13,418 nucleotides of DNA from a virus (Duplodnaviria; Heunggongvirae; Uroviricota; Caudoviricetes). Below, piece after piece: positions 1,296-13,418 of this stretch. The notes beneath the pieces are model-generated. The model did not search any database. It had not been told where the DNA came from and was given only the letters and a program-made list of their open reading frames with translations. The position numbers and the translations under genes were made by a program. Position 1 is the first letter of the stretch; each line of letters opens with the position of its first letter. Location: IMG/VR virus record IMGVR_UViG_2778261416_000004, positions 1 through 13,418 of that record. One strand, given 5' to 3'.

Positions 1296-1964
1296 ATGGT
1301 GAAATCAATGAAAAAAAACACAGATGATGGGGCTAAAATTTACACACCACTTACCCTAAAGCTTTATGACTGGTGGGTTTTGGGAGTATCAAATCGGCTT
1401 GCATGGGGATGTCCTACAAAGGAACACCTTCTTCCACACTTTCTGGAACATGTAGGTAACAACCATCTGGATATTGGTGTTGGAACTGGGTTTTACCTTA
1501 CTCACGTACCTGAGAGTAGTCTGATATCTTTAATGGATTTGAACGAAGCTAGCCTGAACGCGGCATCTACAAGGGCTGGGGAATCAAAAATTAAACATAA
1601 AATTAGCCATGATGTTTTTGAACCTTATCCCGCGGCGTTACATGGTCAATTTGATTCCATTTCCATGTTTTACCTTCTTCACTGCCTGCCTGGAAATATA
1701 TCTACAAAAAGCTGTGTAATACGCAATGCGGCGCAGGCCTTAACTGACGATGGAACTCTATACGGAGCCACAATTCTTGGCGATGGAGTTGTGCACAATA
1801 GCTTCGGTCAAAAACTGATGCGCATTTACAATCAGAAAGGCATCTTTTCAAACACAAAAGATTCCGAAGAAGGCTTAACACATATACTCTCAGAGCATTT
1901 CGAGAATGTTAAAACCAAGGTTCAAGGTACTGTAGTAATGTTTTCCGCTTCAGGGAAAAAATAG
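1296..1964 (+). CDS. Class I SAM-dependent methyltransferase (moron; substrate unknown)
   Basis: 222-aa ORF with motif I 'HLDIGVGTGFY', an acidic post-I residue ('LMDLNE') and motif II-like 'FDSISMFYLLHCLP'. AT-rich relative to neighbours. ATG at 1308, with a GGTGA SD-like motif 6 nt upstream, may be the true start. Stop TAG at 1962-1964. Confidence 0.75.
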   Translation: MVKSMKKNTDDGAKIYTPLTLKLYDWWVLGVSNRLAWGCPTKEHLLPHFLEHVGNNHLDIGVGTGFYLTHVPESSLISLMDLNEASLNAASTRAGESKIKHKISHDVFEPYPAALHGQFDSISMFYLLHCLPGNISTKSCVIRNAAQALTDDGTLYGATILGDGVVHNSFGQKLMRIYNQKGIFSNTKDSEEGLTHILSEHFENVKTKVQGTVVMFSASGKK

Positions 1965-1969
1965 CATCC

Positions 1970-2187
1970 AACCGCAGCACGTTCTTGCTTAAGACGTGCT
2001 GCGGCATAATCCCAATGATTACTCCCTGACAGGGTTCGTAGGCCACTCAATATCAGGTGCAGTTGATGTATCAACACGGTTCAGCAACACCCGATACTTT
2101 TTCCAGGCTTCCAGCAATGAGGTTTCTTCCTCCGTTGCAATTTCCAGATCTGCAGCATCCTGAAGCGGCGCAATATGCTCACTGGCT
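1970..2187. repeat. Direct repeat copy 2 (~215 bp), right flank of methyltransferase island; covers 3' end of tfa
   Basis: Aligns with 920-1137 by eye. Contains a perfect 11-bp-stem hairpin (1972-2004). Confidence 0.8.
1972..2004. terminator. Hairpin between convergent methyltransferase and tfa genes (candidate bidirectional terminator)
   Basis: ccgcagcacgt / acgtgctgcgg, 11-bp perfect stem with 11-nt loop, in the 54-bp gap between convergent stops. No clean U-tract, so terminator function is uncertain. Confidence 0.4.
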
Positions 2188-2603
2188 ACCTGCATCAGGT
2201 TGTTTTTTGTTTCTTCCGCCTCCCGGATCCGGAACAGTTTTTCTGCTTCCGTATCCTTCACCCAGGCTGTGCCGTTCCACTTCTGAAACTCCCCTTCCGG
2301 CGATAACCAGGTAACATTTTCCGGTAACGGACCGAGTTCAGAAATAAATAACTCGTCCCCTGACGCTACGTCATAAACCGTTTTACCCCGATGGTCTTCA
2401 ACGAGATGCCACGATGCCTCATCACTGTTGAAAACAGCCACAAAGCCAGCAGGAATATCTGGTGGTGCAATATCGGTACTGTTTGCTGGCAGACCTGTAT
2501 GAGGCGGAATATATGCGTCACCTTCACCAATAAATTCATTAGTTCCGGCCAGCAGATTATAAATTTTTATGGTCCGTGGTTGTTCACTCATTCTGAATGC
2601 CAT
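2019..2603 (-). CDS. tfa: Tail fibre assembly protein Tfa (lambda Tfa-like)
   Basis: 194-aa ORF; '[39 protein letters not shown]...' matches lambda Tfa as I recall it. Start ATG overlaps the stf stop (TAATG at 2601-2605), a typical stf-tfa coupling. Confidence 0.9.
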
Positions 2604-3976
2604 TATGCAAGCCTCACAATATAGTTAAATGCGATGTTTTTGACGGTGTTTTCCGCGTTACCCGCAGCGTTAACGGTGATGGTGTGTCCATGTGAACCAA
2701 TCGCAACGGAGTGCGTATGCGCACCAATACCTACAGTATGTGCATGTGCGCCAGAACTTGCTGCAGTACCAGACAGCGAGTGGGTATGAGCACCTGCTGA
2801 CTGTGTCTGAATACGTTGATAATACGATCTATAGGAAGAAGTCTCCGGGCTTACTTGATACTGTGAATTCTGGACATAAGTGAACCCACCGCCATCATAA
2901 AATGCTAACGCAGAACCGCCGCCTCCTGGCCAACGAATACCATTACCATGAGTATGAACACCGGCAGACCCCGTAGAGCCACTCAGACTGTGCGTATGCG
3001 CCCCGGTGTTATTCGTGGATTTAGTGCCGTAATCAAACGACGATGTGGTTTTCGTCCCCAAATCCGTACTGGATGCGCTGGCGCTGTGGGTGTGCGATTT
3101 AATGCCGTCCTGTTCCTGAGACAATACGGCCCGGCCACTGGCGGGTTTGCCCTTGATTGTCCAGCCGCGCATATCTGGAATAACACCTGAAGGATAGGCA
3201 ATAGCCAGTTTCGGATATGCTGCCTTATCAAACGTCTGCCCCTGCATGATTGCATAACCTGCAGGTGGTGTATCTGATGGCCACGGCAGCGGAACACCTG
3301 GCGGAAACGCTTCAATATTTGCCGAGCCGTCAAATTTTACGCCGTTAATTGTCCTTGCAGTTTGCAATTTGGTTGCTGTGCTTGCATTACCCGATAAAGA
3401 TCCAGTGATACCACCACTCGCGTTTAATTTAGTTGCAATTGTAACATTGCCAGTATGGTTACTAATTATAAACGGCCTTAAGCTATTGTGCGTACCAAGA
3501 CTGTTACCCGAATCTGTCAACATAAAATATGTGTTTGATCCATCATTTCGGATAAAGAATCCATAGTTGCCATAGGCAATACGCAGACCATTTGCTGACC
3601 TTGAAATAACCTCACCAGCAGCAGTTAAACCACCTGAAAGAGTCCCTCCAGTTAATGCCAATGCCCCAATATTTGAAGGGGTCAATGTGATATTTGCACT
3701 ACCATCAAATGACACACCGTTAATCGTTCTGGCTGCCTGAAGTTTCGTGGCGGTCGCAGCATTACCTGTAGTGTTTTGATTACCGGTAGCGTTGACTCCA
3801 GGCAAGTTGATATCTGCCGATCCATCAAATGCCACGCCCCCAATCTTACGTGCTGTCTTGATCTTGGTCGCAGTATCTGCGTTTCCGGTCAAATTACCAG
3901 TAACACTACCACCAACTTTTAGTCCATTACCGATGGACACCAACTCATGCAGGCGTCTCAGACGACCCACTGACAC
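2603..3976 (-). CDS. stf: Side tail fibre protein Stf, C-terminal portion (5'-truncated; GTG start, no SD)
   Basis: 457-aa ORF with repeated 'GNA(S/D)TATKLQ(T/A)ARTINGV(K/S)FDGSANI' fibre repeats and a His-rich 'GAHTHS' C-terminal region ending '[11 protein letters not shown]', like lambda Stf. The frame stays open upstream to 4066 with no ATG; first start-like codon is GTG at 3976. Confidence 0.8.
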
Positions 3977-4020
3977 TACCGGTGAGTTTAACGATACCTT
4001 CCATTTGACTGGCTCACTTT

Positions 4021-5874
4021 TTATGATGATGCCGGTGCATTTATCTCCAGCACCAGACTTTCTATCTCAACGCCATACGTTGCATTTTTGGTAATATCCG
4101 TCAGCGTCAGTGCATTTAGTCCCACTGTCAGACTGTCTTTTATGACCTGGAATGCCGGGCCAGCCACTCCATTCAGTTTCGGAGTAACCGTGGCACTGCC
4201 GGCGGTGAACACCAGCTCCAGCGTCTGCCAGTCGTTACTGTAATTCCCGAACTCGCCCAACTTTGTGTTTCCGGCTTTCTTGTGATGCATCAGATTCAGT
4301 TTGCCGTCTGTGGTCTGGGTGAAGAACGACATCAGGAACGGGTTACCAGTCCCGGTCATCGCCACGACGTCAGGTAACGCTACATCGGTATACAGATAAA
4401 TTCCCAGACCGAACTGGTTGTTGGTCAGTGCGCCTGACAGTCGAAACTTACAGCTCAGTCTGCCACCCCGTGTCAGCAGGGAGACTGCGTCATCCACCGG
4501 GCGCGTCAGGGACCAGGCTTTATTGCTCTGCTTGGTGATCTTAAATACACCATCTGACAACTGAATTCCGCCATTCTTAATGCTCCAGCCCTGCGCAGCA
4601 GCATCTCCGGCTGTCGGCAACAGGGAGATTGTGCGTACGGATGCATCTTCAGACGGCCCCGATGGCGTGTCGCCGCCGGGCGAGGGTTTGATTTCCGGTG
4701 CCTTACCACTAATGAAGGCTAAGGTGCGACCGGCTACGTTCAGAATAGCAGTTGCCATACGATCGGGAATAATGCCACGACGCGCCCATGAGCTGAAATG
4801 CGTCGGGCGATTTGATGATACCCAGTTTTTGTTCGTTCGGGATGCCGAACCGTAATAACCAGACCCGGCAATATCAGGATCTTCTGACGGGTTGTTTGTC
4901 GGTGTATTAACTCCGCTACCATCGGTCATAAAGGGAACAAAATAAATCTGCTGGGATTCTTTACCTTTATATGCACCATATACCACTTCATATTGCGTAC
5001 CGTGTTCTTGTTTCCACGCGTATGTCGTGTCGCCACAAATCCAGGGGACTGATGCCGGACTTCCACCGTGACACTGCGCTGCCAGCCCGGCAAGGTCAGC
5101 ACGGAACTGCTGTACCATTGCAAGAAATGCTGCTGGCTGCTGGGCGTAACTGGCATTCGTCATATCGAATTCCCCCTGCATCCAGCATATCGCCAGCAAA
5201 ACGTTTTTCGGGTTTTTCTGCAATGCTGCCTTCGTGCGGAAAAGCAGATCCTGATATAACGGCTTACCCACTCCCCAGCGAGCCGAATCCTGACTGGCTC
5301 CCGTGGACTCGCTGAATGTCCCCTCCGTGCCCTGGGTGAATGCCGAACCACCACGACAGCATGGTACCAGCAGGATCCCCGCATTATTAGGGATATACGG
5401 AAGCAGTTTTTTGGCAATATGTAAGCCCTGTCCGACACAGCCGTACTGCCCTTTGCTCAGGTCAGCCCGGGGATGGTTAATCGTACTCATATCCTGAACA
5501 TCATGCAGACAATGGTCAGCAGGAATGATGTCGTTAAATACGCATACTTCACCACCGGGAGTCACTGTGTTACGACGGGCCAGTTGCTTAATGCGCGGAT
5601 GGGGCGCATCGTATGAATCCGGAAGCGGAAGCCCTTCACCGTAAGCCATGGCATTGGATTGCCCGGCCAGTACGATGACGTAGTACCACTCCGGCTCAGT
5701 TGCACCACTGACGACCACATCACCTTCTGCTGCAATCGCCTGCATCAGGGTATAAGGGGTTATGGCCACCGGACTACCAAACGGCTGCCAGCCCTCCTTC
5801 AGTTTTTGTGTCAGTCGTTTCGCAAGGTCTGACGGCGATGCCGCCCTGACCACGTCATAGTGTTTAAATGCCAT
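4021..5874 (-). CDS. Prophage sialate O-acetylesterase (NanS-p-like; DUF1737 + SGNH/SASA esterase + C-terminal domain)
   Basis: 617-aa ORF. '[16 protein letters not shown]' is the SGNH block I motif (GQSN). N-terminus '[21 protein letters not shown]' is the DUF1737-type start seen in EHEC prophage NanS-p esterases. GGAGG SD 4 nt before the ATG. Confidence 0.8.
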
Positions 5875-6067
5875 GAATCCTCCCGGGCGGGATAATGTTG
5901 TGAGTCAGATAAGGAGCAGGCTGAAGTCCGGAAGTTACAGGACAATGGCAGAAGGGAGACTACAGCCCGCAATTCGAAAAAGACCGCGCAGTTGCGCAGA
6001 GTGATTACTATGGGGTATTATTCGCCAGCTGAAATATTACTTCACGTTTTATTGTTTATTCCTTGCC

Positions 6068-6096
6068 GCCCGCGTCTCCCAGCGCGGGCTTTTTTT
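6068..6096 (+). terminator. Strong Rho-independent terminator on the plus strand (orphan)
   Basis: 7-bp GC stem gcccgcg/cgcgggc with 8-nt loop, followed by a T7 run (6090-6096). No plus-strand gene lies upstream. Confidence 0.6.
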
Positions 6097-6104
6097 GTCC
6101 ATAA

Positions 6105-6340
6105 GAAAGCCCCTCCGGAGAGGGGCTAAAGCCGCGTATCTGTATCATCATGCACATGGTGCCGGGTGCCTCCCGGTGAGTTCAGCCCGGTGCCACTAAA
6201 CCCGCGTCATTCTCGTTTTGATAATCAGAGATTATACCGTCACCAGTCGCCCCTCCGCTCAGGGGGATTCACCATGCGAAATTTTTTTAACAAATGCCCA
6301 GTCTGACAGGCAACTGTCAACTTACTGAATTGTGAGCAAC
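6105..6340. repeat. Non-coding direct repeat module A (~235 bp)
   Basis: Shares with module B a perfect 20-nt palindrome agcccctccggagaggggct (6108-6127), 'gcatggtgccgggtgcctcccggtga', 'gcccctccgc.cagggggattcaccatgc' and 'ctgaattgtgag' blocks. Also carries TTGACA and TATAAT hexamers on the minus strand and a CTGACAG-N4-CTGTCAA inverted repeat. Confidence 0.7.
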
Positions 6341-6591
6341 ATAGCATTTAACGGGGAACCTGTTTTCTGCAGTAAAAAGGCCCACCGGAGCGGATGGGCC
6401 TGGAAGGATAGCGGTCATGTGATGCCGGTTTCCCGGTAACTCAGCACCGGTATCTGAGTCAACGTTTTCTCTACTGGGTCATTTCCGATACGCCCTGCCT
6501 GCTGACAGGCTTTCATCACATCTGAAAATATAGCACCCTGACTGATACTGTAGTACCTAAGGTTCCAGAAACTGTGATGTATCCGGCACAG

Positions 6592-6808
6592 AAAAGCCCC
6601 TCCGGAGAGGGGCTGGAGAGTGGCGCTATGTGCCATTGCATGGTGCCGGGTGCCTCCCGGTGAATTCAGTACCAGCACCTGAATCCGCGATTATCCCATA
6701 TACCTACTCGCTGATTGCCCCTCCGCACAGGGGGATTCACCATGCCAGTTTCTTTTAACAAACTCCCCGCAAACCAGACAACAGTCAACCGCCTGAATTG
6801 TGAGACAT
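6592..6808. repeat. Non-coding direct repeat module B (~217 bp)
   Basis: Second copy of module A (roughly 75-80% identity by eye). The palindromic hairpin at 6595-6614 is followed on the minus strand by TTTTCTG. Confidence 0.7.
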
Positions 6809-6810
6809 TT

Positions 6811-6834
6811 AAAAAAAAGCCCGCAAAAGCGAGC
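6811..6834 (-). terminator. Rho-independent terminator of the tRNA operon (minus strand)
   Basis: On the minus strand: GCUCGC-UUUU-GCGGGC hairpin (one G.U pair) followed by U8, immediately 3' of the last tRNA. Confidence 0.6.
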
Positions 6835-6849
6835 CAGGGAAAATAAGTG

Positions 6850-6926
6850 TGGCGCGTTGTACTGGATTCGAACCAGTGACCGATTGCTTAGAAGGCAATT
6901 GCTCTGTCCGGCTGAGCTAACAACGC
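6850..6926 (-). tRNA. argO: tRNA-Arg (anticodon UCU)
   Basis: Manual fold of the reverse complement: acceptor GCGTTGT/ACAACGC, D-arm GCTC...GAGC, anticodon loop CTTCTAA, T-arm ACTGG-TTCGAAT-CCAGT, discriminator G, CCA; 77 nt. Confidence 0.85.
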
Positions 6927-6939
6927 AGGATACAGATAA

Positions 6940-7016
6940 TGGACCGCCTTCGGGGACCCGAACTCCGCGCAACCAGCTTCGAAGGCTGGCGCTCTTTCCT
7001 GATGAGCTAATGGCGG
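6940..7016 (-). tRNA. argN: tRNA-Arg-like (anticodon UCG), possibly degenerate
   Basis: Cloverleaf with anticodon loop CTTCGAA and 3' CCA, but an A.A mismatch in the acceptor stem, an A.C mismatch in the T-stem and an atypical T-loop TTCGGGT. Confidence 0.55.
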
Positions 7017-7023
7017 TATGTGA

Positions 7024-7099
7024 TGGTGGCCCTTGCTGGATTTGAACCAGCGACCTGGCGATTATGAGTCGCTCGCTCTCACCACTGAGCTAAAGGGCC
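7024..7099 (-). tRNA. ileZ: tRNA-Ile2/Met (anticodon CAU; ileX-like, likely lysidine-modified Ile)
   Basis: Reverse complement GGCCCTTTAGCTCAGTGGTGAGAGC...CTCATAA...GCTGGTTCAAATCCAGCAAGGGCCACCA gives a canonical 76-nt cloverleaf, closely resembling E. coli ileX as I recall it. Confidence 0.85.
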
Positions 7100-7108
7100 G
7101 GGAGCAGA

Positions 7109-7137
7109 ATAATAATGGTGCGTAATTAATTCTGCAA
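7109..7137 (-). promoter_or_regulatory. Candidate sigma70 promoter of the tRNA operon
   Basis: Minus strand: TTGCAG (-35, 7137-7132), 17-bp spacer, TATTAT (-10, 7114-7109), about 9 nt before the tRNA-Ile 5' end. Confidence 0.45.
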
Positions 7138-7148
7138 TCTCATCCGTT

Positions 7149-7577
7149 TCAAACGATTAAATCCTGAACTTCCCTGACTGTCTGCTCAAAACGTCCGGTC
7201 TCCAGTTCAACGCCAATCGCACGACGCCCGAGCGCCAGTGCCGCTTTTACCGTTGAACCTGAGCCCATAAAAAAATCTGCAACCAGGTCACCCGGACGAC
7301 TGCTTGCGCTGATTATCTGCTGCAGCATTTCTGCCGGTTTTTCGCACGGATGTTTCCCGGGATAGAACTGCACCGGTTTATGTGTCCACACATCCGTGTA
7401 CGGCACCTGCGCCGTCACACCAAAATACCGCCGCAGATGCTTATATTCACTCTGCAGCTCCACATACTGCCGGTTCAGTGACGTATACGTATCCACCAGC
7501 TGGTGGTGGGGCTTTTCCAGTTCACCGCGCTGATGTTTCTCTTCTGCTACCAGAACAGGTCGAAGTAATACCCGCAC
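7149..7577 (-). CDS. DNA (N6-adenine/N4-cytosine) methyltransferase, C-terminal portion (truncated or frameshifted)
   Basis: 142-aa ORF with 'GKHPCEKPAEMLQQIISASSRPGDLVADFFMGSGSTVKAALALGRRAIGVE', i.e. the HPxxKP and FxGSGST (SAM-binding) motifs of beta-class MTases such as YhdJ. No DPPY motif in this ORF; GTG start abuts the stop of the upstream ORF in another frame. Confidence 0.7.
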   Translation of the reverse strand: MRVLLRPVLVAEEKHQRGELEKPHHQLVDTYTSLNRQYVELQSEYKHLRRYFGVTAQVPYTDVWTHKPVQFYPGKHPCEKPAEMLQQIISASSRPGDLVADFFMGSGSTVKAALALGRRAIGVELETGRFEQTVREVQDLIV

Positions 7578-7578
7578 G

Positions 7579-7851
7579 TTACCTCCAGATGCGTTGCTGG
7601 AATGTGCGGGACGGACGCGGTGGGCGTTCAGAGTAAGGAAGCCTGACGGAGATTATCCAGTGACGATAATCGAGGCTGAGGGCTTTCTTAATCTCGTATC
7701 CGCGTCTGCGGTAGTTATGAATTAGCCATTCGGCCTGTTCTTCAGTACATGGTGGGTGTTGGTACCAGTCGGTTTTAAATGCGTGTGAACGCCGCCCATG
7801 CCGGATGGCAAGGTCGGTATCAGAATTGTGAAATTTGGTTTTGTGCGCCAT
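7579..7851 (-). CDS. Hypothetical protein; possibly the displaced N-terminal part of the DNA methyltransferase
   Basis: 90-aa ORF ending 1 nt before the MTase fragment start. Contains 'DWYQHPPC' where a DPPY-type motif would be expected, but this is not a convincing match. Confidence 0.4.
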   Translation of the reverse strand: MAHKTKFHNSDTDLAIRHGRRSHAFKTDWYQHPPCTEEQAEWLIHNYRRRGYEIKKALSLDYRHWIISVRLPYSERPPRPSRTFQQRIWR

Positions 7852-8411: not shown

Positions 8412-9098
8412 TCACTCCTTCTCTTCTTTTCCGTAGTGGAGTTGGCCAATTTTGATAAGAGGGCGTCCCTGAGATTTGCGGTGTAGATTGGTATCGCGCA
8501 GAGAATACACACAGCCACAATATTCCTGCTGATAGAATTTTTCGCGCTTGCTGATTTCAATCATACGGGACGAGCCGCCCTGCTTGCGCCAGTTATAATC
8601 CCAGTACACCATACCCGGATAATGCGCAACAGCTCGCCGCCCACACTCGTTAACCTGCTGCATATTTTTCCAGCGTGAAATGCCCAGTGAACTGCTGATC
8701 ACACTGAAACCATTTTCAGCAGCGTACAACGCTGTCCGCTCAAAACGCATGTCAAAACACATGGTACAACGGATCCCCCTCTCAGGCTCCCATTCCATTC
8801 CTTTGGCACGTTCAAACCAGTTGTCGGTGTCGTAATCAGCATCGATAAACGGCACGCCGTGTTGTTCAGCAAAGCGAATATTTTCATCCTTACGAATTAA
8901 ATACTCTTTCTGAGGATGAATGTTCGGGTTGTAGAAAAAGATGGTGTAGTCGATTCCCGAGGCCTGAAGCGCCTCCATCACTTCACCGGAACATGGAGCA
9001 CAGCAAGAGTGCAGTAGTAGTTTGTTTGCCCCGTTTGGGAGCTCCAATTTAGGCCGTTTGAAATCAGCAATAGTCATAAATATTTTTATTGGGGTCAT
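8412..9098 (-). CDS. queH: QueH-like protein (DUF208; putative epoxyqueuosine reductase)
   Basis: 228-aa ORF with motifs '[11 protein letters not shown]', '[13 protein letters not shown]', 'CTMCF' and 'CGC', which I recognise as the DUF208/QueH Fe-S signature. 153-bp intergenic region upstream; weak SD. Confidence 0.7.
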
Positions 9099-9677: not shown

Positions 9678-9717
9678 AAGCCCTCCTGAAAATTACCTCA
9701 TGACCAGAAATTAACAC

Positions 9718-11020: not shown

Positions 11021-11064
11021 ACCCAACTCAAAATAAGCCTGGGTTAAGGGGAAATGAGGTCAGC

Positions 11065-12644: not shown

Positions 12645-13418
12645 ATGAGTAAGGTCTTTATTTGCGCTGCTATTCCTGATGAACAGGCCATAAAAGAAGA
12701 TAGCGCTGTTGCGGTGGCCACTGCCATTGAAGCCGGTGATGAGCGTCGCGCACGCGCAAAATTTCATTGGCAATTTCTGGAGCAATTCCCTGCAGCTCAG
12801 GACTGCGCTTATAAATTTCTTGTTTGCGAGGATAAACCCGGTATACCCCGCCCTGCCCTCGATTCCTGGGATGCTGAATATATGCAGGAAAACCGCTGGG
12901 ATGAGGAGTCTGCTTCCTTTGTCCCGGTTGAGACTGAATCAGATCCGATGAACGTCACTTTTGACAAGCTGGCCCCTGAAGTACAGAACGCTGTCATGGT
13001 TAAGTTCGACACATGTGAAAACATCACCGTTGATATGGTTATTAGCGCACAGGAATTGTTGCAGGAAGACATGGCAACATTCGACGGACATATCGTTGAA
13101 GCGTTGATGAAAATGCCAGAAGTTAACGCCATGTACGCTCTCTGGCCTGGTGATGTGGATGCCGGAAACATTGACGGCAGCATCCATCGCTGGGCAAAAA
13201 ATGAAGTTATCGACAACGACCGCGAAGACTGGAAGCGTATCTCGGCATCAATGCGCAAACAGCCTGATGCCCTTCGCTACGACCGCCAGACTATTTTTGG
13301 CCTTGTCCGTGAGCGTCCGATCGACATTCACAAAGATCCCATAGCACTGAACAAATATATCTGCGAATACCTGACGACAAAGGGCGTGTTTGAGAATGAA
13401 GAAACAGACCTGGGCACT
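12645..13418 (+). CDS. ydfE: YdfE-like protein, 3'-partial (runs off the window end; at least 258 aa)
   Basis: Translated by hand from ATG 12645 (GAGG SD 9 nt upstream): 'MSKVFICAAIPDEQAIKEDSAVAVATAIEAGDERRARAKFHWQFLEQFPAAQD...'. Open to position 13418 with no stop; not in the ORF track because it has no stop in the window. Confidence 0.7.
   Translation, partial: MSKVFICAAIPDEQAIKEDSAVAVATAIEAGDERRARAKFHWQFLEQFPAAQDCAYKFLVCEDKPGIPRPALDSWDAEYMQENRWDEESASFVPVETESDPMNVTFDKLAPEVQNAVMVKFDTCENITVDMVISAQELLQEDMATFDGHIVEALMKMPEVNAMYALWPGDVDAGNIDGSIHRWAKNEVIDNDREDWKRISASMRKQPDALRYDRQTIFGLVRERPIDIHKDPIALNKYICEYLTTKGVFENEETDLGT

Follow-up and report, generated by a model that had tools for sequence, protein, structure and literature searches.

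Cryptic lambdoid prophages of Escherichia coli K-12 include Rac, Qin, DLP12 and e14, and a truncated stf gene beside an intact tfa gene is typical of such elements. Prophage decay by deletion is reportedly a general pattern, as Bobay, Touchon and Rocha are said to have described in PNAS in 2014. The lambdoid PR' lies downstream of Q. A paper on Stx phages is cited for this position (PMC10462455). In Stx phages and other lambdoid phages, NanS-p genes occupy the interval that separates Q/stx from the holin gene S (PMC10462455). In this study, we analyzed a DNA stretch of 13,418 bp (the window), which matches, at 100% identity, the final 13,418 bases of the 201,831-bp contig NOSF01000005.1 of the draft E. 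coli assembly GCA_002521955.1. One edge of the window is the end of the contig.

The window contains a lambdoid prophage at the ompW/yciE-trp locus. Past the window, the contig continues through ash, yciE, yciF, yciG and trpA. The intact relatives have an identical order of genes on their ompW side, which indicates orthologous descent with deletion. Apart from its deletions, the prophage is collinear with the intact ompW/yciE lambdoid prophages. Its lysis and virion genes are missing, and no lysis, terminase, head or tail genes were found in the window. The esterase gene, three tRNAs, tfa and other cargo genes are kept, all of them intact; they are simply what the deletion spared. As judged from its gene content, the element is predicted to be a defective, cryptic lambdoid prophage. 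The original prediction had also called it defective, and comparison with intact relatives adds to the loss of the lysis and morphogenesis block at least three further internal deletions. The prophage resembles Rac, Qin, DLP12 and e14 in its large internal deletions of lysis and morphogenesis modules and in the retention of hokD, dicB, tRNAs, stf/tfa fragments and the esterase as cargo or regulatory genes. In contrast to these elements, the deletion described here is private to one assembly and very recent. The coordinates of the features are collected in Table 1.

Table 1. Genes, remnants and deletion junctions of the prophage (window coordinates).
Feature	Position	Strand	Description
tfa (tail fibre assembly)	2019..2603	-	Intact, 194 aa; Caudo_TAP, E = 1.9e-44
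stf remnant	2603..3944	-	Third base of codon 562, codons 563-1008 and stop of a 1008-codon stf
Chimeric ORF, 457 aa	2603..3976	-	GTG start; 11 esterase-flank codons, then 446 stf codons
Main deletion junction	3942..3944		3-bp microhomology AAC (+) / GTT (-), common to the esterase 3' flank and stf codons 562/563
Esterase 3' flank, native	3945..4020	-	76 nt kept; holds GTG 3976 and GTG 3970
NanS-p-type sialate O-acetylesterase	4021..5874	-	Intact, 617 aa; DUF1737, SASA and DUF6645 (Pfam)
Second deletion junction	7547..7548		About 3.4 kb lost; middle of a DNA methyltransferase gene joined to a small gene upstream of DUF968
Third deletion junction	11043..11046		4-bp microhomology GTTA; 1.1-1.3 kb lost
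Fourth deletion junction	13134..13135		2-bp microhomology; 274 bp lost, inside the exonuclease gene

The point at which the esterase flank meets stf is very probably the scar of a single illegitimate, homology-independent deletion of the microhomology type, which removed about 26 kb from a lambdoid prophage at ompW. To place the junction, window positions 3500-4600 were compared by megablast with 5426 complete E. coli genomes. Positions 3942-4600 were matched in hundreds of genomes, at up to 100% identity, under the annotation 'SASA family carbohydrate esterase'. When positions 3000-4020 served as the query, positions 3000-3944 were matched at 100% identity within genes annotated as 'prophage tail fiber N-terminal domain-containing protein'. 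The matches on the esterase side stop at 3942 and those on the stf side at 3944, both with 100% identity in many genomes. In genomes that carry both pieces, about 26-28 kb lie between them within a single prophage. We then compared the window base by base with the esterase flank and the stf gene of strain 14EC047. This three-way alignment tracked the esterase flank exactly to 3942 and stf exactly from 3944, with only GTT (minus strand) common to both, and it revealed no inserted or filler bases, IS element, long repeat or other similarity at the breakpoints. Few shared bases, with no long repeat, IS element, site-specific recombination site or filler, characterize a microhomology deletion, and this is the anatomy observed at 3942-3944. 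The breakpoints were identical against strains 14EC047, BR1220 and 142, and the scar is therefore placed at 3942-3944. It had been predicted to lie within 3960-4070; the alignment with the intact relatives moves it to a position 16 bp below that interval. The event is very recent. The retained prophage sequence is 99.7-100% identical to that of the intact ompW prophages, and for this reason the deletion can be mapped to 3 bp.

The deletion measures 25,939 bp against strain 142, in which the flanks are near-identical, and 27,645 bp against 14EC047. In the latter, an IS3-family element sits within the terminase small-subunit gene, and the interval exceeds that of strain 142 by 1,706 bp. It removed 27 complete annotated CDS and the first 1685 nt of stf. 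The lysis genes lost are those for the holin, DUF1327/YdfR, the lysozyme/endolysin and an Rz-type lysis protein; two cargo genes ('sce7726 family' and 'beta family') were lost as well. The lost packaging and head genes are Nu1, A, W (head-tail joining), B (portal), C (S49 protease), D (decoration) and E (major capsid), and those of the tail side are FI, FII, Z, U, V, G, T, H, M, L, K, I, J and lom. The absence of the genes that normally separate the esterase from stf had been noticed from the window itself. Comparison with intact relatives, in which these genes are present at the same locus from holin to lom, now defines the deleted block between esterase and stf as one of about 26 kb.

The fibre gene had been described as 5'-truncated and as beginning inside the fibre shaft, and both descriptions are borne out. 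Alignment with full-length Stf locates the truncation at codon 562/563 of the 1008-codon gene. Residues 12-457 of the chimeric ORF correspond to Stf 563-1008 of an intact relative (L002), with 446 of 446 residues identical. In the full-length relative, the N-terminal tail-attachment domain PF08400 occupies residues 1-134 (E = 1.1e-68), and a Pfam search gave no match to PF08400 in the ORF of the window. The domains detected there (Gp34_trimer, Collar and Phage_fiber) belong to the C-terminal part of the fibre. The break falls in the repetitive middle of Stf, within the first of two internal modules that are about 42% identical to each other (Stf 501-612 versus 667-779). Phage proteins annotated as side tail fibres share 58-82% identity with the ORF. 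Compared with lambda-type Stf, the remnant retains the C-terminal 446 residues at 100% identity to the full-length 1008-aa protein and is followed by an intact tfa, which overlaps the stf stop codon at 2603 as in intact relatives; on the other hand, it lacks residues 1-562, the native start codon and the ribosome-binding site. The stf remnant is a pseudogene fragment, not a short fibre variant.

The 5' end of the ORF is of a different origin. The ORF starts 44 nt downstream of the esterase on the same strand, and its fibre frame is open upstream to 4066, next to a TGA at 4069-4067. The original prediction had read this whole open stretch as stf. The frame is indeed open from 4066, whereas the assignment of 3945-4066 to stf is not upheld. 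This segment, which holds GTG 3976 and the 11 codons that open the ORF, is native esterase flank and not stf, and the flank down to 3942 is identical to that found after the esterase in intact prophages and Stx phages. Openness of about 41 codons in the stf frame would arise by chance with a probability of about 0.14 by our own arithmetic. GTG 3976 is, as stated earlier, the first start-like codon. The reported lack of an ATG and of a Shine-Dalgarno (SD) sequence is also correct: there is no in-frame ATG before 3523, about 150 codons into the ORF, and the early SD pairing is weak. The early GTG/TTG candidates at 3976, 3970, 3943 and 3940 form anti-SD duplexes of -2.7 to -3.2 kcal/mol, compared with -5.6 kcal/mol at the tfa start. 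GTG 3835 was considered as a start and rejected; the G-run upstream of it reaches -8.4 kcal/mol, yet it abuts the start codon and the spacing is wrong. The interpretation of the original prediction holds in substance, with corrections to the position of the scar and to the 5' end of the chimeric ORF. The source assembly calls the fibre remnant as a 455-aa protein from GTG 3970. Annotations of the 455/457-aa 'tail fibre' ORF should describe it as a 5'-truncated pseudogene that opens with 11 non-fibre codons.

The junction is known from one draft assembly only. When 5426 complete E. coli genomes and 50,697 phage records were searched by megablast, no match extended across it, and exact scans with 36-mers and 22-mers of the junction (22-mer, ATGGACACCAACTCATGCAGGC) gave no match in contigs from metagenomes, in GTDB representative genomes or in contigs from IMG/VR. 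In a set of about 15 billion proteins, the 455-aa version of the ORF product was matched exactly on one contig, and the 457-aa version from GTG 3976 had no exact protein record. No phage fibre homologue aligned before residue 14 of the ORF. The original prediction had raised the case of a full-length fibre with the same N-terminus; no such gene was found in any phage or genome. The junction can serve as a lineage marker, unique to the lineage of this strain.

Its occurrence in a single draft assembly also fits an assembly chimera, in which the draft contig wrongly joins the esterase region to an stf gene of the same or another prophage while the morphogenesis genes are really present. The esterase and stf families are multi-copy in E. 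coli (median 2, up to 8-11 places per genome) and assembly-prone, and the window ends at a contig end. Such a chimera is nevertheless improbable, because graph assemblers need k-mers in common to join sequences, and no more than 3 bases are common to the two sides. In addition, the flanks are collinear for 3.9 kb and 3.6 kb, with the gene order expected of such a prophage and an unchanged chromosomal locus, and the same prophage contains other clean deletions, one of which appears independently in an SRA-run assembly and in two assemblies of metagenomes.

These other deletions resemble the main one, with similar overlaps of 2-4 bp at their junctions. The second deletion removed the 5' two-thirds of the methyltransferase gene, a small ORF, Q, rusA, DUF968 and the stretch expected to hold PR'. 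The hybrid 142-aa OR­F created at its junction is present on 4 contigs. Besides the source, the junction occurs in two metagenome contigs and one SRA-run assembly (SRR3971774), and an eroded prophage lineage therefore exists outside one assembly. The third deletion removed the 3' end of ydaT, a cro-like gene and the repressor gene (racR-type). None of these further junctions was found in complete E. coli genomes. A gap at 9686/9714 relative to BR1220 was considered as another deletion and rejected. Because strain 142 has the same adjacency of DUF977 to the replication gene, this gap represents module mosaicism.

With a true deletion as the preferred reading, the remaining question concerns the fate of the truncated gene (stf'). 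In the intact relative (strain 142, L008 31219-31191), a 12-pair intrinsic-terminator hairpin follows the esterase. In the sequence of that relative, the breakpoint on the esterase side lies 3 nt before the base of the hairpin, which is deleted in the window, and the window scan found no minus-strand terminator between 4021 and 2019, from the esterase stop to the end of tfa. Loss of the native terminator might thus have fused esterase, stf' and tfa into a functional unit, in which translation from an internal or non-canonical start would yield a Tfa-folded receptor-binding fragment of about 446 aa. If so, the fragment could act as a receptor-masking decoy against superinfection or as an adhesin, or its gene could supply incoming phages with a donor for recombination. 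The coding sequence of stf' and tfa is undamaged, and over the final 15 codons of the esterase a -1 shift would lead from its frame into that of stf. We consider such a unit very unlikely. The early starts have neither ATG nor SD, the second deletion took Q together with the region expected to hold PR', and several terminator-like sites precede the esterase. The privacy of the junction to one assembly gives no sign of retention by selection, and the intactness of stf' and tfa is equally explained by a recent event. A programmed -1 frameshift from esterase to stf' was rejected; the two frames would allow it, but their overlap contains no slippery heptamer of the form X XXY YYZ.

We conclude that stf' is most likely a silent, recently created pseudogene, because a usable translation start is absent, Q and the expected PR' are gone and terminator-like sites stand upstream, with Q no longer there to allow read-through. 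Six of these sites, on the minus strand, are located at 5984-6835, ahead of the esterase; the scan as a whole gave 14 terminator-like sites versus 5.2 expected. No minus-strand promoter-like site was detected in the scanned region 1900-7700. As the N-terminal domain is gone and the prophage has no tail, stf' would have no role in a virion. At the protein level, the retained part of stf shows 100% identity to functional relatives, and decay is therefore not readable from its sequence.

The idea that nothing was deleted and that a short fibre gene naturally follows the esterase draws on the mosaicism of lambdoid phages, of which the apparent deletion at 9686/9714 relative to BR1220 proved to be an instance, but it is effectively refuted, since the esterase-fibre adjacency occurs in no phage, genome or contig searched, no fibre homologue starts before query residue 14, and the break lies mid-codon-series in a domain repeat with esterase flank as the first 11 codons of the ORF.

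For the deletion itself, the anatomy of the junction suggests that RecA-independent slipped mispairing or end joining may have joined the ends, and the terminator hairpin adjoining the breakpoint possibly helped. A microhomology of at least 3 bp arises in about 5% of random joins by our own arithmetic, so that the 3 bp are only mildly above chance and the molecular mechanism is one that we infer. Loss of the lethal lysis cassette would probably have been neutral or favoured in a prophage that is also without Q and the immunity region. The locus is an example of ordinary prophage decay, a textbook erosion whose wider significance is small. A young prophage lost its lysis-morphogenesis block, Q region, immunity region and part of the exonuclease gene through separate deletions with 2-4 bp of microhomology, and the genes it kept are still 99.7-100% identical to those of its relatives.

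The esterase gene on the other side of the scar is, by domain content, a predicted full-length NanS-p/SASA sialate O-acetylesterase. It shares with the NanS-p genes of phages the same three-domain protein and a position downstream of tRNA genes, and in intact relatives the holin gene follows immediately. It differs from them in that everything from the holin onward is gone, its own terminator is deleted and no stx genes are present. Its start has a strong SD, with an anti-SD duplex of -10.3 kcal/mol. The exact 617-aa esterase sequence is present on 281 contigs.

Besides the large deletion that joined the esterase 3' flank to stf, the prophage has sustained further internal losses (table below). 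At the second junction, the DNA methyltransferase gene is cut short and now forms a 142-aa hybrid ORF, while Q, rusA and DUF968 are gone. The hybrid ORF was also carried by two metagenome contigs from ENA and by a single SRA assembly from Logan, and was absent from complete E. coli genomes. The third deletion removed the immunity region with its cro-like and RacR-type repressor genes; ydaT was shortened to 105-107 aa. The exonuclease gene, which bears its own internal deletion, passes off the contig end at 13418.

Deleted segments and accessory genes of the prophage and its intact relatives (L002, strain 14EC047; L008, strain 142)
Feature	Position in window	Position in relatives	Strand or orientation	Remarks
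Class I SAM-dependent methyltransferase gene and partial tfa region	970-1239 and 1296-1964	L002 42467-43836		
tRNA genes (n = 3): Arg-TCT, Arg-TCG, CAT-anticodon tRNA	6850-7099		-	
Second deletion junction	7547/7548			inside ORF 7149-7577 (- strand); ~3.4 kb lost
QueH (epoxyqueuosine reductase, PF02677)	8412-9098		-	prophage cargo; adjoins hokD
Third deletion junction	11043-11046			4-bp microhomology GTTA; 1.1-1.3 kb lost
Exonuclease-gene deletion	13134-13135			2-bp overlap; 274 bp lost, inside gene
'sce7726 family protein' and 'beta family protein' genes		L002 15235-16864; L008 27528-29157	convergent	

The block lost between the esterase gene and stf included the sce7726/beta family pair, which is missing from the window and may represent a defence or accessory module. 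In the intact relatives this pair is non-structural cargo, with lysis genes on one side and terminase genes on the other. Within the native 3' flank of the esterase gene is a small open frame, not taken as a gene, at 3945-4004 (- strand); it runs from an ATG at 4004 to a TGA at 3947-3945, ends one base short of the junction and is also found in the intact relatives.

Other parts of the prophage are shared with these relatives. The class I methyltransferase gene lies on the opposite strand, with the intact tfa on one side and, on the other, a further, partial copy of tfa that is ~89% identical over 216-227 bp. Because the window and the intact relatives have this order in common, the arrangement is older than the deletion that created the stf junction. 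QueH was called as 228 aa in the window vs 221 aa in relatives, a difference that is due to the choice of start codon. The three tRNA genes make up the ileZ-argN-argO-type set that is usual in lambdoid and Stx phages; the CAT-anticodon tRNA was assigned to Met by ARAGORN, and its counterpart in relatives is annotated as tRNA-Ile in RefSeq.

A scan of window positions 1900-7700 found 14 terminator-like sites vs 5.2 expected. The stretch upstream of the esterase gene (5984-6835, - strand) holds six terminator-like hairpins, two of which have the identical sequence AGCCCCTCTCCGGAGGGGCT (6614-6595 and 6127-6108, - strand), and an imperfect repeat of ~230 bp pairs 6106-6336 with 6593-6804.
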